From contig CALGZO010000289.1 in NCBI GenBank assembly GCA_937934465.1, positions 1 to 37,997 on the forward strand: 37,997 nucleotides of DNA. The letters are read 5' to 3'. Below are positions 17,642 to 30,160 of the stretch, piece by piece. Source of the DNA: an uncultured Fimbriimonadales bacterium (GTDB taxonomy: Bacteria > Armatimonadota > Fimbriimonadia > Fimbriimonadales > GBS-DC). A program made the position numbers and the translations under genes. The notes beneath the pieces are model-generated. The model was not told the DNA's origin. It did not search any database and worked only from the letters and a program-made list of their open reading frames with translations. Each line of letters opens with the position of its first letter. Position 1 is the stretch's first letter.

Positions 17642-18606
17642 TCTCCAAGTAAGAGCGCGAGCAACGCCTTTTGCGTGTGTAAACGATTCTCCGCCTGATC
17701 CCAGACGGCGGACTGCGCGCCGTCTAACACGGCGTCTGTAATCTCTTCGCCGCGGCGGGCGGGTAGACAGTGTAAAACAATCGCGTCGGGCTTGGCAAGA
17801 CGGAGCAAGTCCTCGTTGACCTGAAACGCCTGAAACTGTCGCATGCGCGCCTCGCGTTCTGTCTCATAGCCCATCGAGACCCAGACATCGGTGTAAACCG
17901 CGTCGGCGTCGGCGACGGCTTCGCGGGGATTGTGTGTCAGCTGCACCTGTCCACCCGATTGACTGCCCAGTTGGCGCGCTTGCTCGATTACGGAGGCGTT
18001 CGGCGCGTATCCATCGGGCGTTGCAATGTGGACTTCGTGTCCCAACAGCGCAGCGAGCATGGTGAAGCTATGGCAAACATTATTGCCATCGCCCACCCAC
18101 GCGAGTTTGAGCGGCGCGTCGCCTTTGCGTTCCTGAATGGTCATCAAATCCGCCAACGCCTGACAGGGATGCTCGCGTTCGCTGAGCGCGTTAATCACGG
18201 GGACCTCCGAGAAGCGAGTCAGCTCTTCCAGCGTGCTGTGCAGGAACACGCGAGCAATCACGCCGCGCACCCAGCGCGAGAGGTTCCGTGCGATATCCAT
18301 GACTGCCTCGCGCTTGCCCATCTGGATGTCGTTCTGTGTCAGGTAGACGCCGTGTGCGCCCATCTGATACAGCCCCACCTCCAGCGTGACTCGCGTGCGC
18401 AGCGACGGCTTCTCGAAAATCAGCGCGAGGGCAGTGGGGGACGCAAATCGGAACAGTTCCTGACCGCTGTGCGTGGCGCGTTTCATCGCGTGCGCGAGCG
18501 ATAGCGCCACACGCGCCGTCTCTAAGTTCAAATCTGCTATCGACAGGTAGTGTCGCGGCGGGTTCGAACCGCGCCACTGCTCAAGGGCTTGCTCATAAGT
18601 TGTCAT
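17638..18606 (-). CDS. argF: Ornithine carbamoyltransferase
   Basis: SLRTRVTLEVG (an S-x-R-T-R carbamoyl-phosphate motif), HPCQALADL, DVWVSMG and HCLPA. SD GAGGAG lies before ATG 18606. Confidence 0.9.
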   Translation of the reverse strand: MTTYEQALEQWRGSNPPRHYLSIADLNLETARVALSLAHAMKRATHSGQELFRFASPTALALIFEKPSLRTRVTLEVGLYQMGAHGVYLTQNDIQMGKREAVMDIARNLSRWVRGVIARVFLHSTLEELTRFSEVPVINALSEREHPCQALADLMTIQERKGDAPLKLAWVGDGNNVCHSFTMLAALLGHEVHIATPDGYAPNASVIEQARQLGSQSGGQVQLTHNPREAVADADAVYTDVWVSMGYETEREARMRQFQAFQVNEDLLRLAKPDAIVLHCLPARRGEEITDAVLDGAQSAVWDQAENRLHTQKALLALLLGD

Positions 18607-18801
18607 GACAGACTCCTCAGATGGTGTAAATGCGTTCTCGCCTCGCCTGAACCGACGGCTGCGTCGTTCCAAGCGAAGCGAGAACTCTTAACTAAGCCAC
18701 TTAGATTGTACCTTCTTTCGCCTGCGCACACCCTGTCTTGCCGAGCGCAGCGAGGCATCTCACTGAGAGGAGTCGCCCCATTTGCCCCGAACTATTGCGC
18801 T

Positions 18802-20580
18802 ATGCCTCGCTGGTGTTGGATGGCTCTGCTTGCGCTTGTGTTGTATGGGGTTTTGGCGTGTCCGCAGGGAGAGACGCATCGGCTGCCGATGCGCGACGGC
18901 GTGCGCTTGGCGACCGATGTGTACCTGCCTGAGGGCAAGCCGCCGTTCCCCGTACTCCTGATACGCACGCCCTACGATAAGAACGCGCTGAAGCCTATCG
19001 GCGAGGACGGCGCGCGGCGGGGCTACGCCGTCGTTGTCCAAGACACGCGCGGGCGGTTCGCCTCCGAGGGCGCGAACCTGCCTTTTGAGGGCGACGGCTG
19101 GTGGGAGAACCGCGCGGACGGCGTGGACACGCTCCGCTGGATTGCCAAGCAGTCGTGGTGCAACGGCAAGGTGGGCACTTGGGGCGGCTCCGCGCTCGGC
19201 ATCAATCAGCTGATGTTGGCGGGGGCGGGCGCACAGCCGCTGACTTGCCAACACATCACGGTCGCCGAGCCAAACTTGCACCAGGCGTTGTTCCCAGGCG
19301 GCGTGTTCAAGAAATCGCTGGTGGAGGATTGGCTGCGCGCCACGCAGCATGCGCCCGACGCGCTGTCGCACTGGACGCGCCACGCCTCGTACGACCGATT
19401 CTGGCAAGCGCGAGATGTGAGCCGTCGATTCCACCGAGTGAACGCGCCAGCCGTGCATATCGGGGGGTACTACGACATCTTCGCGCAGGGCACAATTGAC
19501 GCTTTTATCGGCTACCAGACGCGCGGGGGCAGAGGCGCACGCGGACAGCAGAAACTGCTGATGGGACCGTGGGCGCACGGCGTGCTGCAGACGCGCGTGG
19601 GCGAGCTGCAGTTCCCCAACGCCGACCAGCCGCCATGCACCTTCCACGACCCGTGGCGCTGGTTCGAGCGGTATCTCAAAGGCGTCGCGAACGGTGTAGA
19701 CACGGAGCCGACGGTGGTGTATTATGTGATGGGCGCAGTGGGCGAGCCGAACGCGCCCGGCAACGAATGGCGCACGGCAAACCAGTGGCCTCCACTGCCC
19801 ACGCGCCCGACGCCGCTCTACCTGCACGGCGACCGTACGCTGCGCTTCACGAAACCCACGAGCGGCGTCCCCCTGCGCTACACCTACGACCCGAACAACC
19901 CCGCGCCCACGCGCGGCGGACGCGAACTGAGCATCCCCGCAGGACCGCGCGACCAGCGACCGATTGAGTCGCGTTCCGATGTGCTGGTGTTCACCAGCGA
20001 GCCGTTGCAACAGCCGCTGGAGATTATCGGACGGGTGAAAGCCGTGCTGTATGTCGCCAGCGACGCGCCCGACACGGACCTCATCGTGCGCTTGTGCGAT
20101 GTGTACCCCGACGGGCGTTCCTACAACATCGCGGAAGGCGCACTGCGCTTGCGCTACCGCGAATCGCTCCAACGCGAGCGTCTCCTGCAACCTGGCAAGG
20201 TCTATCGCGTGGAGGTGGACTTGTGGACGACGGCGATGGTGTTCAACACAGGGCATCGCCTGCGCGTGCATGTGACCTCCAGCAGCTATCCTGCCTACGA
20301 TCCGAATCCCAACACAGGCGAGCCGCTGCGCGCCCACACGCGCGTGCAAACGGCGACGAACACGCTCTACTGCGACGCGCAGCGGGCAAGCTATGTGCTG
20401 CTGCCCATCACGAACGCGGCGCGGTCATCGGAAGCCTTGCACCAACGCCTGCGCCAGCACGCCCCAGCCGTTCGCCAAAGTGAACACCAGCAACTTGGCA
20501 GGCATCGACACCACCACAGGCGGCAACATCATCATCCCCATCGAGAGCAAGATGCTCGCCACCACCAAGTCGATAATTAA
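18802..20580 (+). CDS. CocE/NonD-family (X-Pro dipeptidyl-peptidase S15-like) hydrolase, probable lipoprotein
   Basis: Lipobox-like LYGVLAC. MRDGVRLATDVYLPEG..PFPVLLIRTPYDK, plus the C-terminal beta-sandwich pattern RLRVHVTSSSYPAYDPNPNTG...YVLLPI. The start is uncertain (18802 or 18820), and the last 56 aa or so look like non-homologous read-through. Confidence 0.8.
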   Translation: MPRWCWMALLALVLYGVLACPQGETHRLPMRDGVRLATDVYLPEGKPPFPVLLIRTPYDKNALKPIGEDGARRGYAVVVQDTRGRFASEGANLPFEGDGWWENRADGVDTLRWIAKQSWCNGKVGTWGGSALGINQLMLAGAGAQPLTCQHITVAEPNLHQALFPGGVFKKSLVEDWLRATQHAPDALSHWTRHASYDRFWQARDVSRRFHRVNAPAVHIGGYYDIFAQGTIDAFIGYQTRGGRGARGQQKLLMGPWAHGVLQTRVGELQFPNADQPPCTFHDPWRWFERYLKGVANGVDTEPTVVYYVMGAVGEPNAPGNEWRTANQWPPLPTRPTPLYLHGDRTLRFTKPTSGVPLRYTYDPNNPAPTRGGRELSIPAGPRDQRPIESRSDVLVFTSEPLQQPLEIIGRVKAVLYVASDAPDTDLIVRLCDVYPDGRSYNIAEGALRLRYRESLQRERLLQPGKVYRVEVDLWTTAMVFNTGHRLRVHVTSSSYPAYDPNPNTGEPLRAHTRVQTATNTLYCDAQRASYVLLPITNAARSSEALHQRLRQHAPAVRQSEHQQLGRHRHHHRRQHHHPHREQDARHHQVDN

Positions 20581-21168
20581 AAACGGGACATAGATGTAAA
20601 ACCCGATGAGGAAAGCCGTTTTGAGTTCGCTGAGCATGAAAGCGGGGATGAGCGTGGTGAGGGGTAGCTCGTCGGCGGTGCGCGGCGGGGGCTGCTTGCT
20701 TAGCCGAATGAAGAGATTCAGGTCTTCCGTGTAGGTTTGGCGTAGCATGAAAGCGCGGATAGGCTTCTCGGCGCGCTCGAACGCCTGCATCATCGTGATT
20801 TCCTGCTGCATATAGGGCTGGAGGGCGGTTCGGTTCATCTCGTCTAAGGTGGGCGCCATCACATAGAAGGTCAAAAACAGGCTCAAGCCGATGATGACGG
20901 GCGTTGGCGGGATGTTGGGCGCGCCGAGCGCACTCTTGAGGAACGATAGCACAATCACGATGCGCGTGAAGGCGGTCATCATCAGCAGGATCGACGGCGC
21001 GACGGAGAGCAGGGTCAGCAGCGCGAGGATTTGGAGCGAGGTGGAGACCTCTTGGGGGTTGCGCGCCGCGCCCACTTCCACACTCACGCGCGGGATGGGT
21101 ACGGTCTCTTGGGCAAGCGCGAGGCAGGGCAGGAGCATCAGCGCCAGTAGCGTCAGTCGCGTTGTCAT
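20425..21168 (-). CDS. fliP: Flagellar type III export apparatus protein FliP
   Basis: A signal-like N-terminus, then LLTLLSVAPSILLMMTAFTRIVIVLSFLKSALG, PFLIIDLVVASILLSMGMMMLPP and a C-terminal LANGWGVLAQALVQGF. Confidence 0.95.
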   Translation of the reverse strand: MTTRLTLLALMLLPCLALAQETVPIPRVSVEVGAARNPQEVSTSLQILALLTLLSVAPSILLMMTAFTRIVIVLSFLKSALGAPNIPPTPVIIGLSLFLTFYVMAPTLDEMNRTALQPYMQQEITMMQAFERAEKPIRAFMLRQTYTEDLNLFIRLSKQPPPRTADELPLTTLIPAFMLSELKTAFLIGFYIYVPFLIIDLVVASILLSMGMMMLPPVVVSMPAKLLVFTLANGWGVLAQALVQGFR

Positions 21169-21776
21169 GGTTCGCCTCCGATTAGGCTTTGCAGGCGTGC
21201 GCGGGTCTGCTGCAGGCGGGTCTGCACCTGCGCCGCCGCTTCGGCTTGGAGGTCGGTTGGCGGCGTGGTCGGCTGCGCACGGCGCAACGCCTGCTCGAAT
21301 GCGCTGGGCGACGCTTGCAACGGTTCGGGTTTGGGCAGGGTATCGGTCAGGTCAGCGATGAGTTGCATGCCCTGTGCGCTCGCGCCAATCAGTAATAGTC
21401 GGTCGCGCGCTTTGACCAGCATCAGGCTGCCGCCGAGCGCGCTGCGCGTCTCGATAATCTTGATTTGTCCGTCGAGGGGCGAGCCGTCGCCTGTTCTGCC
21501 AGCCCAGCGGAGCAGTTTGGGCAGCCCCCATCGCAATCCCGCTGCGACGATGAGGAGCGCGACGCCCAGCTGCGCCCATCCCAGCGAGGGCGTCTCGGGC
21601 GTACCGATGCGCTGAGTCGGCGCGCCCGTCCGCGTGCCGTATGCGCCCGGCTCCAGCGGCGCAGTCGCCTCTTGCTGGCTCCACGCCGTCAGAATTACCA
21701 GCGTTAAGGCAAGCGTGATGCCTGCGCGTCGCATCCAGCCGTAGGTTGCGCTCAGCGTTTCCTGTTGTGTTCGCAT
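21165..21776 (-). CDS. fliO: FliO-like flagellar biosynthesis protein (longer than typical)
   Basis: The position between fliN and fliP, TM segments, and IIETRSALGGSLMLVKARDRLLLIGASAQGMQLIADL, which matches the FliO core pattern. It has an ATGA overlap with the fliP start. Confidence 0.7.
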   Translation of the reverse strand: MRTQQETLSATYGWMRRAGITLALTLVILTAWSQQEATAPLEPGAYGTRTGAPTQRIGTPETPSLGWAQLGVALLIVAAGLRWGLPKLLRWAGRTGDGSPLDGQIKIIETRSALGGSLMLVKARDRLLLIGASAQGMQLIADLTDTLPKPEPLQASPSAFEQALRRAQPTTPPTDLQAEAAAQVQTRLQQTRARLQSLIGGEP

Positions 21777-21798
21777 CGCCGTCTCCGTAAAGAGGGCG

Positions 21799-22752
21799 CT
21801 ATGCGCCCAACCGCTGCACGCGCTCGGTGGGCGAGAGGATTTCCGTGATACGCACGGCGAAGTTATCTTCCACCACAACCACCTCGCCGCGTGCGATGAG
21901 CCTGCCGTTCACCAGCACCTCCACTGGCTCGCCTGCCGCCTTTTGCAACTCCACGATGGAGCCCGTGCCGACCTCCAGCAGTTCGCGCACCAGCATCGTC
22001 ACGCGCCCCAGCTCCACCGAGATTTCCAAAGGGATGTCCAGCAGCAGGTCGATGTTGCGTTCGGGCGCGTCGTCGGCGTCGGCGAAGGGGTTGAACCCGA
22101 CGGGCGCAGCGGGCGTCGACGTGGAGAGCGCAGATTCTACCTCCATCGTCAGCGAGGCGAGCGGGTCGGCTTCCACAGGTTTCATCCCCAGCAGCGCGCG
22201 CGCCAAGTTCTCAGTGAGCAGCCATGTGAGATTGAACGGCGCACGGTCGGGGATTTGCACCGTGAAGCGCGTGGCGACCACCTCGTCCACCGTGAGAAAG
22301 TTCGGCGGAAAGGTCACAGGCTCGAGGCGCGCTGTAATCTGCTCTGGGGTGAAGGTCTTGCCGCTGATGTTGCCGAACGCGACGGCTAAGCCTTGCATCA
22401 GGTGTCTGCCGAACTCCTGCACGGCGGCGAGCGCGGCGTCGTCGAGGCTTTCGGGCGCGCTGCCCAGTGTGGCTTCCAGCAGTGCTTTTTGGGTTTCCAA
22501 CCGCTCGCTGGGTTGCTCGCCCACGATGAACAGGCACGGCGCGTCGCTCTGCTCGGCGAACTGTGCTTGGATGTGTAGTACAGGGTCTGCCGTCAGCCCT
22601 GTTAGCTCGCCGATTGGGACTGCGCTGCTGGTGGGGGTCGGGATTTCCACCAGCGTATTGCTCTGCTCCGACAGGTGTAGCGCGACGCTTTGCCACACCT
22701 GCGGCTGTTTCGACACGAACTGCGTCAGAAGTTCCACCGAGACTTCGCTCAC
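21799..22752 (-). CDS. fliN: Flagellar motor switch protein FliN with a long FliY-like N-terminal extension
   Basis: The C-terminal SpoA/FliN domain reads LLLDIPLEISVELGRVTMLVRELLEVGTGSIVELQKAAGEPVEVLVNGRLIARGEVVVVEDNFAVRITEI. The N-terminal 220 aa or so are CheC/FliM-middle-like. At the site equivalent to the CheC phosphatase motif (D/S-x3-E-x2-N) the sequence is AAVQEFGR, which looks degenerate by eye. GTG start with SD GGAGGA. Confidence 0.9.
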   Translation of the reverse strand: MSEVSVELLTQFVSKQPQVWQSVALHLSEQSNTLVEIPTPTSSAVPIGELTGLTADPVLHIQAQFAEQSDAPCLFIVGEQPSERLETQKALLEATLGSAPESLDDAALAAVQEFGRHLMQGLAVAFGNISGKTFTPEQITARLEPVTFPPNFLTVDEVVATRFTVQIPDRAPFNLTWLLTENLARALLGMKPVEADPLASLTMEVESALSTSTPAAPVGFNPFADADDAPERNIDLLLDIPLEISVELGRVTMLVRELLEVGTGSIVELQKAAGEPVEVLVNGRLIARGEVVVVEDNFAVRITEILSPTERVQRLGA

Positions 22753-22755
22753 GAG

Positions 22756-23763
22756 TTAGTCCTCCGTAATCACATCTGTAATAGCGACGACGAGTTTCCG
22801 ATTGCGCACGGCGGGTTTGCCCCGAAACTTCACACGGTTCTCCACTAAGACATCGATTTTGCCGTTGTAGGGCGTGTTGAGCAAGATAGTGTCGCCGACT
22901 TTGAGTTGGAGCAGCTCGCTTAGGCGCATCTGCGTTTTGCCCAATCGGGCGTGGCAAGTGAGCGCGGTGCGGTGGAGGTGCTGGGTGAGGGCGCGTCGCA
23001 GGATGGGCGTGGTGCGCTTGCCTGCGCTGGAGACCCAGTTCTGCGAGCTGAGTCGCGGGGTGATGGGTTTGATGACCATGTGGGGCACGCACATGCTCAT
23101 CGCGTCGCGCCGCTCGCCGATACGCGCCTCCATCAGCACGGTAATCACGATGTCGCTCGGCGGGGCAATCTGCACGAACTGCGCGCTGGTCTCCAGAGTT
23201 TCAATCTTTGGGTCTACTTGCAGGATGCTCTCCCATGCGCTGCGGTACGCCATCAGCATCCGTTCGCCCAGCGCCAGCACCAACGGCTTCTCGATTTCGG
23301 TGAACGCGGCGCGCTCAATCGGTTTGCCCACGCCGCCCAACAGCCGATCCAGCATCGTGAAGACCAGCGCGTATTCCATCTCCAGCACTGCCTCGCCCGA
23401 AAGCGGCGGCGCACTGAACACGATGAACGCCGACTGCTTCAGCGAGCGCAGGTAGTCTTCGTAGGGAATCTGCTCCAGCGAGATGAGCTCGATGTGGATG
23501 GGCACGCGCAGGTAGGTGGCGAGGTTGGTGGAGCAGAGCCGTGCGAAGGTCTCGAACACCATCTGCAAGGTGCGCAGCTGGTCGCGCGAGAACTTGTCAG
23601 GTCGGCGGAAGTCGTACACTTCGTAGGCGATGGTCTTTTTGGCGGCGCGTCCACCCCCGACAGGCATGGCGACAGGCGCGCCCAAGTCGCCGCCCGCGCT
23701 CTCCTCCGCCGTGAGCGACGCCAGCAACGCCTCAATCTCCGCCTGTGAGAGGATTTCGCTCAT
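22756..23763 (-). CDS. fliM: Flagellar motor switch protein FliM
   Basis: The N-terminal LSQAEIEALL is the CheY-P binding motif. YDFRRPDKFSRDQLRTL follows, with a C-terminal SpoA-like domain. Confidence 0.93.
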   Translation of the reverse strand: MSEILSQAEIEALLASLTAEESAGGDLGAPVAMPVGGGRAAKKTIAYEVYDFRRPDKFSRDQLRTLQMVFETFARLCSTNLATYLRVPIHIELISLEQIPYEDYLRSLKQSAFIVFSAPPLSGEAVLEMEYALVFTMLDRLLGGVGKPIERAAFTEIEKPLVLALGERMLMAYRSAWESILQVDPKIETLETSAQFVQIAPPSDIVITVLMEARIGERRDAMSMCVPHMVIKPITPRLSSQNWVSSAGKRTTPILRRALTQHLHRTALTCHARLGKTQMRLSELLQLKVGDTILLNTPYNGKIDVLVENRVKFRGKPAVRNRKLVVAITDVITED

Positions 23764-23796
23764 CCGATTCGCCTCCCGCGCAGTATCACAGGCGAA

Positions 23797-23823
23797 TTAT
23801 CGGCGTGCGCGGTACAAAACTTG
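23797..23823 (-). promoter_or_regulatory. Sigma-28 (FliA)-type promoter upstream of fliM
   Basis: The minus strand reads tCAAGTTT-N12-GCCGATAA, against the enteric consensus TAAAGTTT-N11-GCCGATAA. The -10 element ends 33 nt before the fliM ATG, with SD GGGAGG in the leader. Confidence 0.55.
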
Positions 23824-23984
23824 AGTTCAAATGCGTCTTTACATTCCGTGAGCAATCTCCCAACGCCGGCGCGTGGGTCAGAGCGCATAAACCCCACCGA
23901 AGATTTCTCAAGCGCTCTCAGCTTGATATTGCCTGGCGCGCCTCGCGGCAGGAACTTCACGCGCCGATGAGAATCTAAGCGTTT

Positions 23985-25217
23985 ATGCGAGCGTTTCTAC
24001 TGGGCACTGTGCTGGTCGGGATGGTTGCGCTGAGCGCGGCGCAGCCGACTCAAACGACTGACGCGCCGACCTCTGAACCTACCGCGAAACCCCGCCAAAT
24101 CACGCTCGCCTCCACGCAGGAGGGCGAACGCTGGTGGTGGATGGAAGACGCCAAAAGCAACCCGCTCAGCGCCCCACGAAAGACTAACGACGCCAGCTGG
24201 AGTATCGAGGTCCCTGCCAACGCCCAGACACTGTGGGTGTACGAGTCCCAAACGGGCAACCTCGCACGGCTCAAAACCGCCGAACTGAAGGAGAAGAACG
24301 AACTGACGCGCGAGGCGTGGACGCATGTCGCTCGCGTTCAAGTGAACTTGAGAGCGCAGGCGAAGCCCGTCGCCAGCGCGATAGTAACGCTCAAAGACTC
24401 GACGGGCGCGGAACACAAGCGCGTGCTGGAGCCGTCAGCCGAGGGGATTGTGGTGTTCGAGCGCGTGCCGCTGGGCAAGGTGGAAATCGTCGCGCAGTAC
24501 GGCGACGACGGTAAGGCGACGCAGGAGACAACGCTGAAGGCAGAGCGGGAGCTGCGCGTGCCTGTAATTGAGTTGTCGCTCAGTGGAACGGTGGCGACGC
24601 TGGAGCCGAAAGCGGATACCAACGCCGTCGCCAAGCCCTCTGAAGAGACGCCTGCTGGCAGTCGCATCGGCGCAATCGTGATGTTTGCGATTGCGCTGGC
24701 GCTGGCGATTGGCGTGATAGTGTTTCTTGTGCGCTTAGCAGTGCAGAAGCCGCAACAGGTCGGCGCGGCGATGGGCAAACTGGGTGTGGAGCTGCCCCAA
24801 GCGGCGTCGGGCGTCGGAAGCGCAACTGCCACACTTGAACCCCAACAGCCCGACCTGCCGCCGCTGGACACCGCCGGCGTGCCCCCCACAGCGACCGCCG
24901 CGCCTACTATGATTGTCTCAGTGGGACCCGCCACTCGACTCGTCGCCACTCAAGGACCCTACGCAGGGCAGACCTTCGCCATCGACGCCGAGCTGATGAC
25001 CATCGGGCGCGAGGCGGTTCACCCCATCGCGCTGGTGAACGATATGGGCGTCAGTCGCACTCACGCGCAGATAGTCAAGCAGGGCGAAGAGACGCTCATC
25101 GAGGATTTGGGCAGCACGAACGGAACCTATGTGAACGGCGCACGCATCAGCGCGCCCACGCCCATCAAGCCCGGCGACATGTTGCAGCTCGGCGCAAGCC
25201 TGTTCCGTGTGGAATGA
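23985..25217 (+). CDS. Single-pass membrane protein: secreted Ig/CarboxypepD_reg-like ectodomain, TM helix, Pro-rich linker, cytoplasmic FHA domain
   Basis: Signal peptide MRAFLLGTVLVGMVALSAA, TM segment IGAIVMFAIALALAIGVIVFLV, and a canonical FHA domain: TIGRE...VSRTHAQI...GSTNGTYVNG. Confidence 0.85.
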   Translation: MRAFLLGTVLVGMVALSAAQPTQTTDAPTSEPTAKPRQITLASTQEGERWWWMEDAKSNPLSAPRKTNDASWSIEVPANAQTLWVYESQTGNLARLKTAELKEKNELTREAWTHVARVQVNLRAQAKPVASAIVTLKDSTGAEHKRVLEPSAEGIVVFERVPLGKVEIVAQYGDDGKATQETTLKAERELRVPVIELSLSGTVATLEPKADTNAVAKPSEETPAGSRIGAIVMFAIALALAIGVIVFLVRLAVQKPQQVGAAMGKLGVELPQAASGVGSATATLEPQQPDLPPLDTAGVPPTATAAPTMIVSVGPATRLVATQGPYAGQTFAIDAELMTIGREAVHPIALVNDMGVSRTHAQIVKQGEETLIEDLGSTNGTYVNGARISAPTPIKPGDMLQLGASLFRVE

Positions 25218-25220
25218 GCG

Positions 25221-26576
25221 ATGGTGCAGAAGCTGTTTTATCTGATGGTGTTCGGCGCGATTGGGGGCGTGCTGGCGTGGGCGGTGAACGAGCCGTTCAT
25301 GTCGGACGACCTCACGCGCACGGTGGACTGGGGCGCGCTGGCGCGGTTCGGCGCGGCGTCGGGGCTGTGTATCGGCGCGATGATTGGCTTGGCGACAGGG
25401 CTGTCGCTGGGCACGGGAAGACATATCCAGCGCGGCGTGCTGTTGGGCGCGCTTATCGGCGTTTTCGGCGGCTGGATAGGCGTGACGATTGGGCAAGTGA
25501 TTTTCAGCCTGTTCAAGCCTGAGGAGTCGGTTATCGGGATGGTGTTCGGGCGGATTCTGGGCTGGAGCGCGTTCGGGGGCTTGATTGGTCTGTCGGAGGG
25601 GGTGATTGCGCGTTCGCCCAAACGGATACGGAACGGACTGCTGGGCGGCGCGCTGGGCGGCGCGTTGGGCGGCGCAGTGTTCGATTTCTTGGCGTTTACA
25701 GTGGGTGTGACCTTCGGGTTCGCGTTGCGTGCGGAGGGCGAGGCGGGCGCGCCCTCGCGTGCGGTCGCACTCACGCTCATCGGCGCGGGCGTCGGGCTGT
25801 TTATAGGGTTGCTGGAGCTGGCAACGCGCTCGGCGTGGGTGCGCGTCATCTACGGGCGCAACGAGGGCAAGGACTACCCAATCGACCGCGACGGGGCATA
25901 TATCGGGCGTGATGAACTCGCGGATGTGCCCCTGCGCGGCGACCCAAATGTCGCGCCGCGCCACGCCGAGATACGCACGAGCGGCGGCTATGTGCTGGTC
26001 GCGCATGCGCCGACGCTCGTGAACGGTCAGCCTGCAACTGCCCCAACGCCCCTGAATGACGGCGACACATTGCAGGTGGGCGGGTTCCAACTGCTGTTCC
26101 AGTTGCGCACGGGTCAGGCGGCGCGTGCGCCGCGCGACGCCGTGCGGTCGCCCCTGCCGCCGCCGATGCCCACACCGCTCGGCGTGTGCCCCTACTGCGG
26201 GCAACGGCAAGACCCCGCCACAGGCGCATGCGCCTGCACGCCCGTCGCTACGCCTGCCTACACCCCCACAGCCACAGCAACCGCCGTGACGCAAGCCCTC
26301 GCGCTGGTCGGACTCGACGGCGCGTTCGCAGGACAGCGTATCCCAATCACGCCCGCAGGTCTCACTGTCGGACGCGAAGCCGATAATATGCTGATTGTGC
26401 CAGACCCGTCAGTGAGCCGTCGCCATGCGCGCCTCGCCCTCGAAAACGGCGCGCTCGTGGTGTACGACCTCAACAGCACCAACGGCGTGTTCGTGAACGA
26501 GCAACGCGTGAGCCAACGGATTCTCCAGTCAGGCGATGTGGTGCGGTTCGGAAGCGTGCGGTTCCGCGTGGAGTAG
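25221..26576 (+). CDS. Polytopic membrane protein (glycine-zipper TM region) with two FHA domains flanking a Cys-rich motif
   Basis: The N-terminal 190 aa or so are hydrophobic and include GGALGGALGGAVFDF. FHA-1 reads YIGRD...VAPRHAEI...TLVNG. The Cys motif is CPYCGQRQDPATGACAC. FHA-2 reads TVGRE...VSRRHARL...NSTNGVFVN. The gene starts 4 nt after the upstream FHA gene stop. Confidence 0.85.
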   Translation: MVQKLFYLMVFGAIGGVLAWAVNEPFMSDDLTRTVDWGALARFGAASGLCIGAMIGLATGLSLGTGRHIQRGVLLGALIGVFGGWIGVTIGQVIFSLFKPEESVIGMVFGRILGWSAFGGLIGLSEGVIARSPKRIRNGLLGGALGGALGGAVFDFLAFTVGVTFGFALRAEGEAGAPSRAVALTLIGAGVGLFIGLLELATRSAWVRVIYGRNEGKDYPIDRDGAYIGRDELADVPLRGDPNVAPRHAEIRTSGGYVLVAHAPTLVNGQPATAPTPLNDGDTLQVGGFQLLFQLRTGQAARAPRDAVRSPLPPPMPTPLGVCPYCGQRQDPATGACACTPVATPAYTPTATATAVTQALALVGLDGAFAGQRIPITPAGLTVGREADNMLIVPDPSVSRRHARLALENGALVVYDLNSTNGVFVNEQRVSQRILQSGDVVRFGSVRFRVE

Positions 26577-26652
26577 CACATTTATTAAAATCCCCTTAAC
26601 TATCCAGTCGGTATACTTTGCGCACTCGCGTGCAAGCGAGGGAGGGAATGCG

Positions 26653-29214
26653 ATGAAGCGAGCGATGATTCTACTGGGAGTTCTGACAGGGCTGCTGACA
26701 GCAGCGATGGCGTATGGAACGGAGAAGCGACTGCCCGTGCCTGCTCCGGGCGTCGCTGAGGCGGTGATTGCCACTGTAAACGACCTGCCGAGCGGACCGA
26801 AAGCCGACGGGCGCGCGGGCGACTATGTGCTGCGCAATCATCGCGCGACCTTCGTGATAGCAGGGATTCGTCCAACGCACGGCTACGGACGCTTCGGCGG
26901 TAGGCTCGTCGACGCCGTGTTGAACGAGGACGGACGCCGAAGCGACTTTTTAGGCGAGTGGTTCTACGGAATCGCCGATGCGCGCGGGCTGTTGGCGACG
27001 CGCACTATGCGCCCTGAGCGTATCGATATCGTCTCGGCGGGCGGCGCGGGCAAACCTGCTGTGGTGCGCGTGCAGATGGTCGACGAACGCCTGCCCCTGA
27101 TTGACCAGATTACTCGCATACCCACTCAGCCGATGGGCGCGCGCGTGACGATTACCTACACGCTCGAACCCGATAGCCCCACGCTGCTGATGGAGGCGAC
27201 CCTACAAAACCCAAGCGACCGAGCGCAAGCCTACACACTAATGATTGGCTGGATTCAAGACGACGGCATGCAGATGTATATGCCGCCGTTTGGGCACGCG
27301 AAGGCGGCGCAGGGCGCGTCGGCGGGCGCGGGCATGATGGCGTTAGTGAATACCTTGCGCGGCGCGATTCCCTACGCGGCGGCGGTAAATCATCAGCTCA
27401 GCTACGGGTTCTACCCCATCGCCGAGCAGTTGCCGATGGTGCAGAAGGCGCAAGATATCTATATTTTGTATCTATTGAATAATGCTTCTACGGAGCCGCG
27501 CGGGAGCGTAAGCGTGCGTTGGGCGCTCACGGTTGGGAGAGGCGAAACGGAGACCGTTCGCGCCGAGCGCAACCGCCTGTTGGGGTTGAACCCTGAGACG
27601 ACGCTCGCTGCGGGCGTGGTGCGCAACGCCGACGGCGCGCCTCTCGCCGACGCCCGCGTCTACCTGTTCCAGACCAACGGCGAGCGCGAGCAGTTCGTCA
27701 CGGTCGTGCGCACGGATGCGTCGGGGCGGTTCCAAGCGCAGCTCGCGCAGGGCGAGTATCGCGCGATGGCGTTTGCCGACCACCACACGCCTCAGGAGTT
27801 CCGCTTCAGCGCGCCTGTGAGCGCGATGCCGACGGTCAGCCTGCCCGCGCCTGCGCAACTGCGCCTGCGCGCCACAGATGATAACAACAAACCGATGCCC
27901 GCCGCCGTCGTGTTCGAGCGGCTCGACGCGCCCCGCGCGAACGCTGAACGCCTGCTCTATGGCGAGGAGGGCAACTTCGGACGCTGGAACCGTGTCCACT
28001 ACAGCCTCACTGGCGACGAGACGCTACTCGTGGAACCCGGACGCTACCGCATTACGGTAACGCGCGGCTTCGAGTATGAGATTGCGCAGCGCGAGTTCGA
28101 CCTGCAATCGGGCGCAATCGCCGAGTTCAACGCCCAACTTGCCCACACCGCGCCCCTGAACGGCTATCTGTCGGGCGATTTCCACCTGCACACCCTCACC
28201 TCGCCCGATTCGTTCGACTTCTTCGAGGATAAAATCGCCTCCTATGTGGCGATGGATGTGCATATCATGGTGAACACCGACCACGACTACCATGTAGACC
28301 TTGAGCCGACCGTGCGCGCGATGGGGCAACGCAACCGCTTGGCGACGATTGTCGGCAACGAGATTACACCGATGAGCGCGATTGGGCACTTCAACGCCTT
28401 TCCGCAGCGCTACGACCCCAACGCTTGGAACAACGGCGCTATCGAGTGGTACGACCTCAAGGCAGGCGAAATCTTTGCACGGGCGCGTCGGAACTACGCT
28501 CGCGACTCAATCGTGATGATTAACCACCCGCGCGCGCCCACGATGGGCTACTTCGCCTATATCGGCTTAGACCCCAAAACGGGCGTCATTCAACGCTCCG
28601 ACGAGCTCAGCGAGGACTTCGACGCCATCGAGGTGATGAACGGCATGAATGTCGCCGCCGCCGAGACCGTGATGCAGGACTGGTTCTACTTCCTGAATCG
28701 GGGGAAGCGCGTGCTGGGCATCGGCACAACCGATAGCCACCATGTGTTCCGTCTGCAGCCGGGCTTGCCGCGCACCTATGTCTACTACGGGCATCGCAAT
28801 CCTGCGCGTGTCACGCCCGACAACTTGGTTGCGCGGTTGCGCAGGGGCGATGTGGTGGTGTCCAGCGGTGCTGTGCTGACGCTGACGGCGGCGGATGCTC
28901 GCAACCCACGCCGCGCCGTGCGCATCGGCGACACGCTCAAACTGCAGAGCGACGCGATTGTGCTGAATGTTGAGGCGCGTGCGGCGTCTTGGGTGCGTAT
29001 GCAATCGCTGCAGGTGATTGTGAACGGCGAGGTCGCGCTGGAGCAGCCGTTGAACCAGCCTGACGGCAAGCCGCTGAACTACAAAGCGACGCTGAGCGTG
29101 CCTGTTTCGGGCGAGAAGGGCTGGCTGATTGTGCGACTTGTGGGCGACAGGTTCACCGCGCTGCTGCCCGACGCGCCGATGGCGTTCACCAACCCCATCT
29201 ACTGGACGCGCTAA
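26653..29214 (+). CDS. Secreted PHP-domain (CehA/McbA-like) metallohydrolase with a CarboxypepD_reg-like insert
   Basis: SD GGAGGG lies before ATG 26653. Signal peptide MKRAMILLGVLTGLLTAAMA. PHP-like metal ligand series: GDFHLHTLTSPDS, VNTDHDYH, MINHP, IEVMNG, GTTDSHH. The beta-sandwich insert reads GVVRNADGAPLADARVYLF...DASGRFQAQLAQGEYRAMA. Confidence 0.75.
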   Translation: MKRAMILLGVLTGLLTAAMAYGTEKRLPVPAPGVAEAVIATVNDLPSGPKADGRAGDYVLRNHRATFVIAGIRPTHGYGRFGGRLVDAVLNEDGRRSDFLGEWFYGIADARGLLATRTMRPERIDIVSAGGAGKPAVVRVQMVDERLPLIDQITRIPTQPMGARVTITYTLEPDSPTLLMEATLQNPSDRAQAYTLMIGWIQDDGMQMYMPPFGHAKAAQGASAGAGMMALVNTLRGAIPYAAAVNHQLSYGFYPIAEQLPMVQKAQDIYILYLLNNASTEPRGSVSVRWALTVGRGETETVRAERNRLLGLNPETTLAAGVVRNADGAPLADARVYLFQTNGEREQFVTVVRTDASGRFQAQLAQGEYRAMAFADHHTPQEFRFSAPVSAMPTVSLPAPAQLRLRATDDNNKPMPAAVVFERLDAPRANAERLLYGEEGNFGRWNRVHYSLTGDETLLVEPGRYRITVTRGFEYEIAQREFDLQSGAIAEFNAQLAHTAPLNGYLSGDFHLHTLTSPDSFDFFEDKIASYVAMDVHIMVNTDHDYHVDLEPTVRAMGQRNRLATIVGNEITPMSAIGHFNAFPQRYDPNAWNNGAIEWYDLKAGEIFARARRNYARDSIVMINHPRAPTMGYFAYIGLDPKTGVIQRSDELSEDFDAIEVMNGMNVAAAETVMQDWFYFLNRGKRVLGIGTTDSHHVFRLQPGLPRTYVYYGHRNPARVTPDNLVARLRRGDVVVSSGAVLTLTAADARNPRRAVRIGDTLKLQSDAIVLNVEARAASWVRMQSLQVIVNGEVALEQPLNQPDGKPLNYKATLSVPVSGEKGWLIVRLVGDRFTALLPDAPMAFTNPIYWTR

Positions 29215-29221
29215 TCACAAA

Positions 29222-29247
29222 CGCCCCGCCCATCGTCGGGCGGGGCG
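29222..29247. terminator. Bidirectional GC-rich hairpin between convergent genes
   Basis: CGCCCCGCCC-atcgtc-GGGCGGGGCG, a 10-bp perfect stem. A T-rich run (TTTGTGATT) follows on the minus-strand reading. On the plus strand only a weak 'cagcttt' follows. Confidence 0.6.
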
Positions 29248-29291
29248 CAGCTTTAGACAGCGTCGCTTAGAACAGTCCAATCAGTACAATC

Positions 29292-29984
29292 TCAGTGCTT
29301 TGCGCGTCGGCGCAGCAGCAGCCCCGCCAACCCCGCGCTCAGCGCCAGCATGCTCGCAGGCTCTGGCACCCAATCCTGCTCCACGAACTGCAGCGAGGCG
29401 ACTGATGTGCCAGGAGCGCGAGCGCCGTCGATATGCACGATGAAGGTCTCAATCACCTGCACATTCGCAGAGGGCCGAGCTAGCGGAACATAAAAACTCG
29501 ATGCGATGGCTCTATCTGAACCGCCCGAGTAGCCTGATCCGCTGAACATCCCGCCGCCGTTGTAGAGGATCTGGCTTGTGTTCAGGTCAACCACCTTCTT
29601 GCTCCAGATGATTTGCCCCATTTCGTACACAAAGCCGTTAATCACGAAGTTAAATCCGAGCAGGGGCGTGCTGCCAGTGATGGTGTAAGCCGCTGTGTAA
29701 GTGCCGCCCGTGAAGGAAGTGCCGTTGCCAGTGAGAATCGGGTTCGGATTGCCGCTTGCGGTTAGGAAGGTTACTTGCGGCAGTTGGCTCACAAACACCG
29801 TAGCAGGCGAGTTCAAGGGTCCGACATTGTTGATTTGGAATGGCACACTCACTTGCACAGCGGGTTGACTGGGGCGGAACAAAGTGCCCTGACTGGTGGA
29901 CACACTTACCGTCCAGCCACTCGCGAATGCCGCTGAGACCGCTGTAAGGGACAGCGTAATACCGAGTATCTTTAGCCCTTTCAT
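29292..29984 (-). CDS. PEP-CTERM sorting-domain secreted protein
   Basis: Signal peptide MKGLKILGITLSLTAVSAAFA with SD GGAGG. The C-terminal VPEPASMLALSAGLAGLLLRRRAKH is a PEP motif plus TM segment plus basic tail. The gene looks visibly less GC-rich than its neighbours. Confidence 0.85.
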   Translation of the reverse strand: MKGLKILGITLSLTAVSAAFASGWTVSVSTSQGTLFRPSQPAVQVSVPFQINNVGPLNSPATVFVSQLPQVTFLTASGNPNPILTGNGTSFTGGTYTAAYTITGSTPLLGFNFVINGFVYEMGQIIWSKKVVDLNTSQILYNGGGMFSGSGYSGGSDRAIASSFYVPLARPSANVQVIETFIVHIDGARAPGTSVASLQFVEQDWVPEPASMLALSAGLAGLLLRRRAKH

Positions 29985-30025
29985 CCTGTTGTACCTCCAA
30001 GTTAGGATTATTTGAACGCCCTCGA

Positions 30026-30044
30026 CGCGCCATGCCATGGCGCG
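30026..30044. promoter_or_regulatory. 19-nt perfect palindrome in the divergent PEP-CTERM/hisC intergenic region (candidate operator)
   Basis: CGCGCCATG-C-CATGGCGCG, located 117 nt upstream of the hisC ATG and 42 nt upstream of the PEP-CTERM gene start. Confidence 0.3.
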
Positions 30045-30160
30045 CTCGGTAGGATTCGGCGTCCACCTTAAAAGACTCAAAAAACCCCGAAAAACGGACA
30101 GGTTTTGTCAGGATTTCGAGCCGATTCGCAGCAGTTGGGGGTGTAGGGTACAATCTGTGT

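Follow-up and report, generated by a model that had tools for sequence, protein, structure and literature searches.

A conserved pair of membrane FHA proteins in Armatimonadota, probably separated in one clade from its kinase, phosphatase and vWA partners

The window analyzed here is a 38-kb stretch (G+C about 63%) of contig CALGZO010000289.1 from an uncultured Fimbriimonadales bacterium, and our subject is a pair of adjacent genes within it, A and B, which encode membrane proteins with cytoplasmic FHA domains. A third gene, C, follows on the same strand, and the flagellar switch gene fliM diverges from A. We consider it likely that A and B are a conserved, co-translated pair of inner-membrane adaptors that read phosphothreonine (pThr) through FHA domains, that the pair is specific to the Armatimonadota, and that in this lineage it has become detached from a cluster encoding a serine/threonine kinase (STK), a PP2C phosphatase and a vWA protein. 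An earlier, sequence-only reading had instead proposed a kinase-less module of all three genes that spans the envelope and is possibly connected to motility. The elementary parts of that description are sound. The three co-oriented genes, their domains and their gaps (3 nt between A and B, 76 nt between B and C) are borne out by the open reading frame map and by Pfam and NCBIfam searches, the membrane location and cytoplasmic FHA domains of A and B by Pfam, hydropathy and AlphaFold2 (AF2) models, and the lack of a kinase or phosphatase gene in the window by a Pfam scan of its reading frames. The interpretation placed on them does not survive comparison with related genomes. Coordinates of all features are collected in Table 1.

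Genes A and B are the conserved unit

One genome per species was scanned, giving 210 genomes with a relative of B, and the best 80 of these 210 loci were compared. Loci were counted by tblastn and taken as informative where the flank was sufficient (for example, at least 3 kb downstream for C and at least 5 kb upstream for fliM). The window clade is defined as L007–L030, and the distant group as loci in which the B homologue is 32–45% identical. Every record title among the 80 loci that names a phylum names Armatimonadota. Gene A abuts B in 70/73 informative loci, the gap being typically −4 to +8 nt. The linkage of these two genes, already noted from the window, is therefore that of a genuine, tight and conserved pair.

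Gene C lies downstream of B in one of the 64 loci with at least 3 kb of downstream sequence, to which L007, with its short flank, can be added. Of these two C-bearing loci, L015 (96% identity) belongs to the same species as the window and L007 (79%) to the next nearest relative, so that C follows B in only 2/80 related genomes. Elsewhere in the window clade the place after B is taken by unrelated genes, encoding for example an amidohydrolase, an S1 protein or CoaE. The fliM gene lies upstream of A in 5/63 informative loci, all of them close relatives in the window clade, and in none of 47 distant loci. In four loci (L001, L011–L013) a gene for a protein of ~780 aa stands between fliM and A (L001:6605-8716), and its match to PD40, a beta-propeller repeat, is only faint. 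Taken together, these counts indicate that the conserved unit is A–B and that C and fliM are recent neighbors. The sequence-only reading had included C in the module and had suggested a link to flagella; neither proposal fits this distribution.

Distant relatives carry the pair in a kinase/PP2C/vWA cluster

Clustering of flanking reading frames in the distant group gives the gene order SprT-like, Nnr, A, B, vWA, soluble 2xFHA, PP2C and Pkinase+TPR. Pfam confirms the domains at L041, where FHA, 2xFHA, VWA, 2xFHA, PP2C and Pkinase+TPR proteins follow one another. A vWA gene is found downstream of the pair in 34/64 loci overall, which divide into 34/47 in the distant group, where it comes directly after B, and 0/17 in the window clade. 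The corresponding counts are 12/39 and 0/14 for PP2C and 11/39 and 0/14 for the STK, and no kinase or PP2C gene occurs within 7–10 kb in 14 window-clade loci. Directly upstream of A, the Nnr gene (YjeF_N/Carb_kinase, NAD(P)HX repair) is present in 43/47 distant loci and in 0/16 loci of the window clade. Nnr in the distant loci (L031–L086) often has a SprT-like gene before it. This upstream position may reflect a functional coupling or no more than a stable synteny of housekeeping genes. The other conserved flanking clusters are Tpt1, LacI, GFO/IDH, SDR, cytidylyltransferase, Zn-ribbon, SprT-like and PD40.

Because distant relatives carry the pair within a kinase/PP2C/vWA cluster, its 'kinase-less' condition would be a derived local state and not, as first thought, a property of the system, whose other members in those genomes are vWA, 2xFHA, PP2C and Hanks-type kinase genes. 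The sequence-only reading had itself remarked that kinase and PP2C genes in a canonical arrangement just outside the cluster would make this an ordinary STK module; such an arrangement is very nearly what the distant relatives have, though not this window.

The kinase of the relatives is of receptor type, a single transmembrane segment separating the kinase domain from a TPR domain that would lie outside. Transmembrane segments are lacking in the vWA protein, the PP2C and the 2xFHA protein, the last of which begins with a Zn ribbon, and these proteins are soluble. The vWA proteins open with two to four tandem 'DPN(R/K)TQ' repeats (e.g. L032:9366-10751; P0121–P0240). Among 120 vWA homologues, the first 80 residues contain at least one [RKNH]T[QRKV] motif in 111/120 proteins and at least two in 85/120. 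The repeats are candidate multi-site threonine phospho-acceptors and FHA docking sites. Were they so used, the system would be multivalent: five FHA domains, of which four are canonical, would be matched with a number of pThr sites. In a homologue search with the L032 vWA protein, none of the best 120 of 1340 matches could be tied to a window-clade genome.

Gene A encodes a membrane FHA protein with an ectodomain

The gene A product has a signal-like hydrophobic N-terminus and a single transmembrane segment (residues 227–254) in a hydropathy scan, and a C-terminal FHA domain that scores 65 bits against PF00498 (cut-off 20.7). The AF2 model, built from a 20-sequence alignment, has an overall predicted local distance difference test score (pLDDT) of 76.7, which exceeds 90 in the all-beta ectodomain and in the FHA domain; the linker between the transmembrane helix and the FHA domain is disordered. 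The residues that would contact pThr in the FHA domain (R342, S357, H360, S377 and N379-G380) are invariant among 20 homologues.

In the PDB, Foldseek matches to the two models are almost exclusively FHA domains (GarA/OdhI, FhaA, DgcB, CT664 and ArnA), with GarA/OdhI, FhaA, DgcB and ArnA among the matches to the FHA region of A. For these matches of A and B the TM-score on the target is 0.75–0.92 and the root-mean-square deviation about 1 Å, and the FHA regions have a pLDDT of about 85–95. For the ectodomain of A, the sole non-FHA structure among the 50 Foldseek matches listed is SpyCEP (rank 48, TM-score on the target 0.06). Weak CarboxypepD_reg matches, the best with an E of 2.2e-4, occur in 12/20 homologues of A, but the A protein of the window has no match to this family at E ≤ 1.

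Gene B joins a six-helix membrane domain to two FHA domains

Hydropathy predicts six glycine-rich transmembrane helices in the gene B product, and Pfam finds two FHA stretches (PF00498, 107.8 bits against a cut-off of 20.7). In the AF2 model (10-sequence alignment, pLDDT 77.5) the helices span residues 2–26, 37–63, 66–97, 104–130, 133–170 and 177–202, and the strands of the first FHA domain (FHA1) begin at residue 205, with no linker after the membrane domain. The membrane domain has no Foldseek match in the PDB and no matching Pfam model.

The two FHA domains of B differ in their predicted binding surfaces. The second, FHA2, keeps R385, S399, H402, S419 and N421-G422, all invariant, and with them the GR, SRRH and STNG motifs of the alignment. 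In FHA1 the serine of SxxH is replaced (V-A-P-x-H-A) in all ten aligned homologues. Window-clade sequences have lost the S-T-N-G loop by deletion and others read G-S-P-(I/M/A/V)-G at this point, which leaves only GR, the histidine and the final NG of the pThr-contact set. This loss indicates that FHA1 is a degenerate FHA domain with a probably structural role, and it probably does not bind pThr.

A HMMER scan with residues 1–225 of B finds 988 cluster representatives at E ≤ 0.001. In nine of ten sampled representatives an FHA-type domain comes directly after the membrane domain; the tenth (232 aa) has no Pfam match. Two of the nine are fusions, P0343 with the order transmembrane-FHA-VWA-FHA (785 aa) and P0354 with transmembrane-FHA-VWA (512 aa). 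Around the gene for P0354 lie genes for FHA, Pkinase-PP2C, VWA, FHA and Pkinase proteins. Fusions of the membrane domain and FHA to VWA are an independent tie between B and the vWA partner. At the fusion locus L087:1321-2859 there are, in addition, a gene for a fused Pkinase-PP2C protein and a second set of VWA, FHA and Pkinase. All organism-named members of the membrane-domain family belong to the Armatimonadota, including the class Armatimonadia, in which a shorter B-type protein stands alone.

The linker between FHA1 and FHA2 carries a four-cysteine motif, C-x2-C-G-x4-P-x-TGACAC (residues 323–339), which may be a zinc knuckle, recalling the Zn-finger-FHA protein ArnA and the Zn ribbon of the relatives' 2xFHA protein. 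In some relatives the motif is found instead in the cytoplasmic linker of A (homologues P0480 and P0481), and it is missing from many distant homologues.

An ECF-like promoter precedes gene A

The 221-nt intergenic region between fliM and A contains a GGAAC-N18-TCTAA element that ends 6 nt before the ATG of A, where there is no Shine-Dalgarno site. The element recurs as GGAAC-N18-TC[TC]AA, 6–8 nt before the A start codon, in 13 window-clade loci with diverged spacers and upstream context, against a background of 0.007 occurrences per 310 nt when the plus strands of all loci are counted. It is also kept, as GGAAC-N18-TC(T/C/A)AA, in L001, L012 and L013, in which A lies downstream of the gene for the ~780-aa protein. 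No GGAAC-N18 element was detected upstream of A in L011. Promoters of extracytoplasmic function (ECF, group-4) sigma factors, in the RpoE-like pattern, combine a −35 GGAAC with a −10 of the TCxAA type at a fixed spacing. The A–B element is thus ECF-promoter-like, and from this likeness we infer both the sigma factor and the transcription start. Given that the element ends 6 nt before the ATG and that a Shine-Dalgarno site is lacking, the A–B mRNA would probably be leaderless or have a very short leader. No ECF sigma gene is present among the window reading frames scanned.

The sequence-only reading had considered the element GCCGATGA in this region and rejected it as a promoter. It lies at 23963-23970, within the variable spacer of the ECF-like element, and an alignment of L015 and L007 shows that it is not conserved in L007, so the rejection was correct. 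A scan for sigma-70 promoters across 23600-29500 gave nothing better than shuffled sequence.

Relation to characterized FHA systems

ArnA/ArnB is an established case of an FHA-vWA partner pair that a kinase and a phosphatase control (PMC6509490), neighborhoods of an STK, a PP2C and a standalone vWA gene have been described (PMC7159879, Kaur et al. 2020), and Deinococcus has a vWA-STK-FHA-PP2C operon (bioRxiv 10.64898/2026.01.23.701218). The Deinococcus radiodurans genes, DRA0331–DRA0334, encode the same vWA, transmembrane Hanks kinase, FHA and PP2C set as the cluster of our relatives. The Armatimonadota differ in adding A and B, two membrane FHA proteins for which no counterpart has been described, and the window itself holds only A and B of the module. 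In Sulfolobus acidocaldarius the FHA-vWA pair ArnA/ArnB likewise operates with Hanks-type kinases and a phosphatase (PMC6509490, PMC12852372). The FHA domain of ArnA is a structural match to those of A and B (5a8i), zinc-ribbon-like cysteine motifs accompany FHA in ArnA as they do in B and the 2xFHA protein of the relatives, and A–B here adjoins motility genes, although that adjacency is not conserved. Unlike the membrane proteins A and B, both Arn proteins are soluble, and no sequence relation extends beyond FHA.

FHA domains also act at the inner membrane, together with kinase, PP2C and vWA, in the threonine-phosphorylation pathway of the type VI secretion system (Fha1/TagH, PpkA with a vWA domain, and PppA) and, as the FHA-like domain of SctD/YscD, in the type III secretion system. 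Scores of A and B against the TagH model TIGR03354 are 34.4 and 80 bits, with a cut-off of 120.25. The SctD model TIGR02500 yields 21.2 bits against a cut-off of 86; SctD has an N-terminal cytoplasmic FHA-like domain, one transmembrane segment and periplasmic ring domains, the order ectodomain, transmembrane helix, FHA in A is the opposite, and B has six transmembrane helices. Neither the window nor the 15 shared flanking clusters scanned with Pfam contain genes of type VI or non-flagellar type III secretion systems (c1–c8, c12, c19–c21, c29, c30 and c36).

A parallel in gene arrangement is the actinobacterial locus fhaA-fhaB(fipA)-pstP-rodA-pbpA-pknA-pknB, where two adjacent FHA genes, one for a membrane-anchored protein, lie by PP2C and kinase genes as the pair does in our relatives. 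A–B could accordingly be the counterpart of FhaA/FhaB(FipA) and couple an STK to cell-wall synthesis or division, a proposal that is compatible with the adaptor pair we favor. The FhaB/FipA model of Rv0019c (NF049868) is the best NCBIfam match of both FHA regions, the FHA domain of FhaA is among the Foldseek matches (3oun, 3po8 and 2lc1), and an ECF promoter of a type resembling those for envelope stress would fit an envelope function. At 79.9 and 82.6 bits, however, the scores do not reach the equivalog cut-off of 125, and they cover the FHA region only. The shared flanking clusters (at least four loci) that were scanned with Pfam contain no RodA/FtsW and no penicillin-binding protein, several clusters being left unscanned. 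The most constant partner of the pair is a vWA protein, which the actinobacterial locus is without, and the architectures differ, with six transmembrane helices and two FHA domains in B and an ectodomain with one FHA domain in A. We hold it unlikely that A–B is the functional counterpart of FhaA/FhaB; an envelope or division role like that of FhaA/FipA is at most a reasonable guess for the output of A–B.

A and B fall below the cut-off in all NCBIfam equivalog tests (FhaB/FipA, TagH, SctD, OdhI and GltG), a result that places the pair in no named family and suggests that it works like the FHA adaptor arm of an STK/PP2C/vWA module. No homologue with a functional name was found in the collections searched, and literature searches on the A–B family, and on Armatimonadetes with FHA and kinase, returned no papers. 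Judged by these sequence comparisons, A–B is an uncharacterized, phylum-restricted membrane FHA adaptor pair of the STK/PP2C/vWA signaling type.

A model for the A–B pair

We suggest the following scheme. Ancestrally, A–B would have been one arm of a Ser/Thr phospho-signaling cluster that also comprised the vWA protein, the Zn-ribbon-2xFHA protein, PP2C and a receptor Hanks kinase. In the window clade the pair would have moved off from these partners to form a self-contained unit of two genes that carries an ECF-type promoter of its own, presumably as a member of an ECF regulon, while the kinase would be encoded elsewhere in the genome. The kinase would phosphorylate threonines of a partner, for which the vWA TQ repeats are the best candidates. 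The canonical FHA domain of A and FHA2 of B would dock onto the resulting pThr sites and so bring the partners to the membrane, where A and B are expected to form a complex. To this complex A would bring two extracytoplasmic beta-sandwich domains, and B a six-helix glycine-zipper bundle rigidly joined to the degenerate FHA1. PP2C would reverse the phosphorylation and reset the system. Gene C would have arrived beside the pair recently, and fliM would be an incidental neighbor with a sigma-28-type promoter of its own.

Several points weigh against this scheme. The kinase, phosphatase and vWA protein of the window's own genome are deduced from the loci of relatives, and contacts between A and B, and of either with the vWA protein, are predicted. 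PP2C and STK genes adjoin the pair in only about 30% of distant loci, a looser link than that of the vWA gene. The ECF-like promoter is a prediction from sequence conservation and the known consensus.

A more radical scheme takes A–B as a self-sufficient transmembrane device in which the helical bundle of B is a gated pore or a lipid-facing effector and switches state when the FHA domains bind pThr. Loosed from its kinase partners and placed under an envelope-stress ECF sigma factor, such a device might even have been rewired to the flagellar switch. We regard this as quite improbable.

Were the adaptor-pair model correct, it would define a phylum-wide family of membrane FHA adaptors and put in place of an apparent 'kinase-less FHA module' a system that is more ordinary, though better defined. 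It names the predicted partners (the TQ-repeat vWA protein, the Zn-ribbon-2xFHA protein, PP2C and the TPR receptor kinase) and would provide a testable model of Ser/Thr signaling for the Armatimonadota, a phylum with almost no experimental genetics. The locus would also exemplify a signaling arm that has been separated from its kinase locus and put under an ECF-type promoter, and the links to flagella and to the PHP hydrolase that had been drawn from proximity would be dropped.

The flagellar neighbor

The position of the pair, divergent from fliM across the intergenic region and near fliM in five related genomes, raises the alternative that A–B is a motility regulator that exerts phospho-control over the flagellar switch, flagellar export or flagellar gene expression. 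Control of a motility organelle by FHA, vWA and kinase proteins has precedent in ArnA/ArnB (PMC6509490, PMC5300886), and both A and B match the Pfam model Yop-YscD_cpl. That model is itself FHA-like, however, and it matched the same stretches as PF00498; the SctD score and the reversed topology of A, with its C-terminal FHA domain, provide no support for a specific relation. The fliM adjacency is confined to a sub-clade and is interrupted in four loci (L001, L011–L013) by the ~780-aa gene, and the ECF-like promoter stays with A–B whatever lies upstream.

The promoters of the two units also differ. E. coli sigma-28 has the consensus TAAAGTTT-N11-GCCGATAA, by which TCAAGTTT-N12-GCCGATAA is a near-consensus, sigma-28-like promoter for the fliM operon. 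It is located 33 nt upstream of the fliM ATG, and L015 and L007 have its GCCGATAA block unchanged. The sequence-only reading had remarked only on the weaker GCCGATGA of the opposite strand. The A–B and fliM units thus appear to use different sigma factors, which argues against shared control, and we hold a role of A–B in motility to be very unlikely.

The GCCGATAA octamer occurs at six sites in the window (15121, 16539, 19505, 23797, 25453 and 26379), compared with 0.82 expected from shuffled sequence. The site at 23797 is intergenic and next to a flagellar gene, 15121 falls between called genes, and the remaining four are inside genes, two of them in gene B.

Gene C encodes a secreted CehA/McbA-type hydrolase

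The gene C product has a signal-like N-terminus by hydropathy, a large N-terminal region with no assigned family, a CarboxypepD_reg beta-sandwich and a C-terminal metallohydrolase domain. The last matches NF038032 at 156.7 bits (cut-off 80), with residues 505–852 aligned to positions 1–314 of the 315-position profile, and contains the candidate metal-binding motifs HLH (511–513), DHD (543–545), NHP (624–626) and DSH (694–696). No Pfam PHP model matches C at E ≤ 0.01, and a sequence search of the PDB returned nothing at E ≤ 1. The assignment of C as a PHP/CehA-type hydrolase is thus upheld by the full-length NF038032 match, and its PHP part finds no support in Pfam. In this match and in its His/Asp motifs, C resembles the CehA/McbA PHP-type metallohydrolases; it differs from them in the large extra N-terminal region and the CarboxypepD_reg sandwich.

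The case for a single envelope-spanning module, in which secreted C would act with the ectodomain of A and pass a signal to the cytoplasmic FHA domains without a dedicated kinase, depends on proximity and on a shared fold. The three genes are co-oriented and closely spaced, an arrangement kept in L015 and L007, and no terminator-like site was found in the B–C gap, so C may be co-transcribed with A–B in this genome. The sequence-only reading had also assigned the ectodomain of A and the sandwich of C to the same CarboxypepD_reg-like type. The weak matches among A homologues lend this a little support, which the lack of a match in the window's own A makes faint, and sandwiches of the CarboxypepD_reg type abound in the secreted proteins of bacteria. 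The three-gene module is largely refuted by synteny, given that C is found at the locus in only two close relatives and that the conserved partners of the pair elsewhere are vWA, PP2C and STK genes, and we consider it highly improbable. From its sequence and distribution, C is an unrelated secreted CehA/McbA-type hydrolase and a lineage-specific, recent neighbor of A–B.

Least credible of all is a role of A–B in phage defense or conflict, within a system of the vWA/kinase type: vWA, kinase, PP2C and FHA domains do occur in predicted conflict systems (PMC7159879) and the relatives' kinase matches the PD-T4-6 kinase models of PADLOC, but we judge these matches to reflect generic Hanks-kinase similarity, PADLOC finds nothing in A, B or C or in the vWA and 2xFHA proteins of the relatives, effector-type domains are absent, and the pair occupies a single conserved syntenic position by housekeeping genes (Nnr and SprT-like) throughout the phylum, unlike mobile defense islands.

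Layout of the locus and neighboring genes

Pfam scans of reading frames across the 38-kb window found no member of the Pkinase or PP2C families, and the window holds no vWA gene. Downstream of C, a hairpin separates the convergent ends of gene C and a gene for a PEP-CTERM protein (29292-30080, minus strand), and it is likely to act as a bidirectional terminator that closes the plus-strand transcription unit.

Table 1. Features of the A–B locus and its surroundings (window coordinates)
Feature	Position (nt)	Strand	Residues or elements	Basis and remarks
fliM-fliN-fliO-fliP block	20425-23763	-	fliM first	Pfam FliM, FliMN_C, FliO, FliP
fliM	22756-23763	-		Pfam FliM 180 bits, FliMN_C; divergent neighbor of gene A
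Sigma-28 (FliA)-like promoter of fliM	23824-23817 and 23804-23797	-	TCAAGTTT, 12-nt spacer, GCCGATAA	Sequence
ECF-sigma-like promoter of A–B	23951-23978	+	GGAACTT-N16-TCTAA (GGAAC-N18-TCTAA)	Conservation
Gene A	23985-25217	+	410 aa	Open reading frame and domain searches
Gene A ectodomain, two beta-sandwich domains	24087-24584	+	~35-200	AF2 model
Gene A transmembrane helix	24663-24746	+	227-254	Hydropathy and AF2
Gene A canonical FHA	24936-25211	+	318-409	Pfam and AF2
Gene B	25221-26576	+	451 aa	Open reading frame and domain searches
Gene B membrane domain	25221-25826	+	1-202	Six helices, AF2 and hydropathy
Gene B degenerate FHA1	25833-26105	+	205-295	AF2 and alignment
Gene B Cys motif in disordered linker	26187-26237	+	323-339, CPYCGQRQDPATGACAC	Sequence
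Gene B canonical FHA2	26301-26570	+	361-450	Pfam and alignment
Gene C	26653-29214	+	853 aa	Open reading frame from 26536; likely start ATG 26653, GGAGG-like site upstream
Gene C CarboxypepD_reg beta-sandwich	~27613-27804	+		Pfam 44.3 bits
Gene C CehA/McbA metallohydrolase domain	~28162-29205	+		NCBIfam NF038032
Hairpin, likely terminator	29221-29248	.	12 pairs, 10 G-C	Terminator-like scan

On the other side of the locus, fliQ and fliR do not follow fliP, and the flagellar block here consists of fliM-fliN-fliO-fliP only. The 3' end of fliP (20425-21168, minus strand) overlaps by 156 nt, in convergent orientation, a reading frame for a CocE/NonD-family hydrolase (18550-20580, plus strand). This overlap, 20425-20580, is also present in L015.

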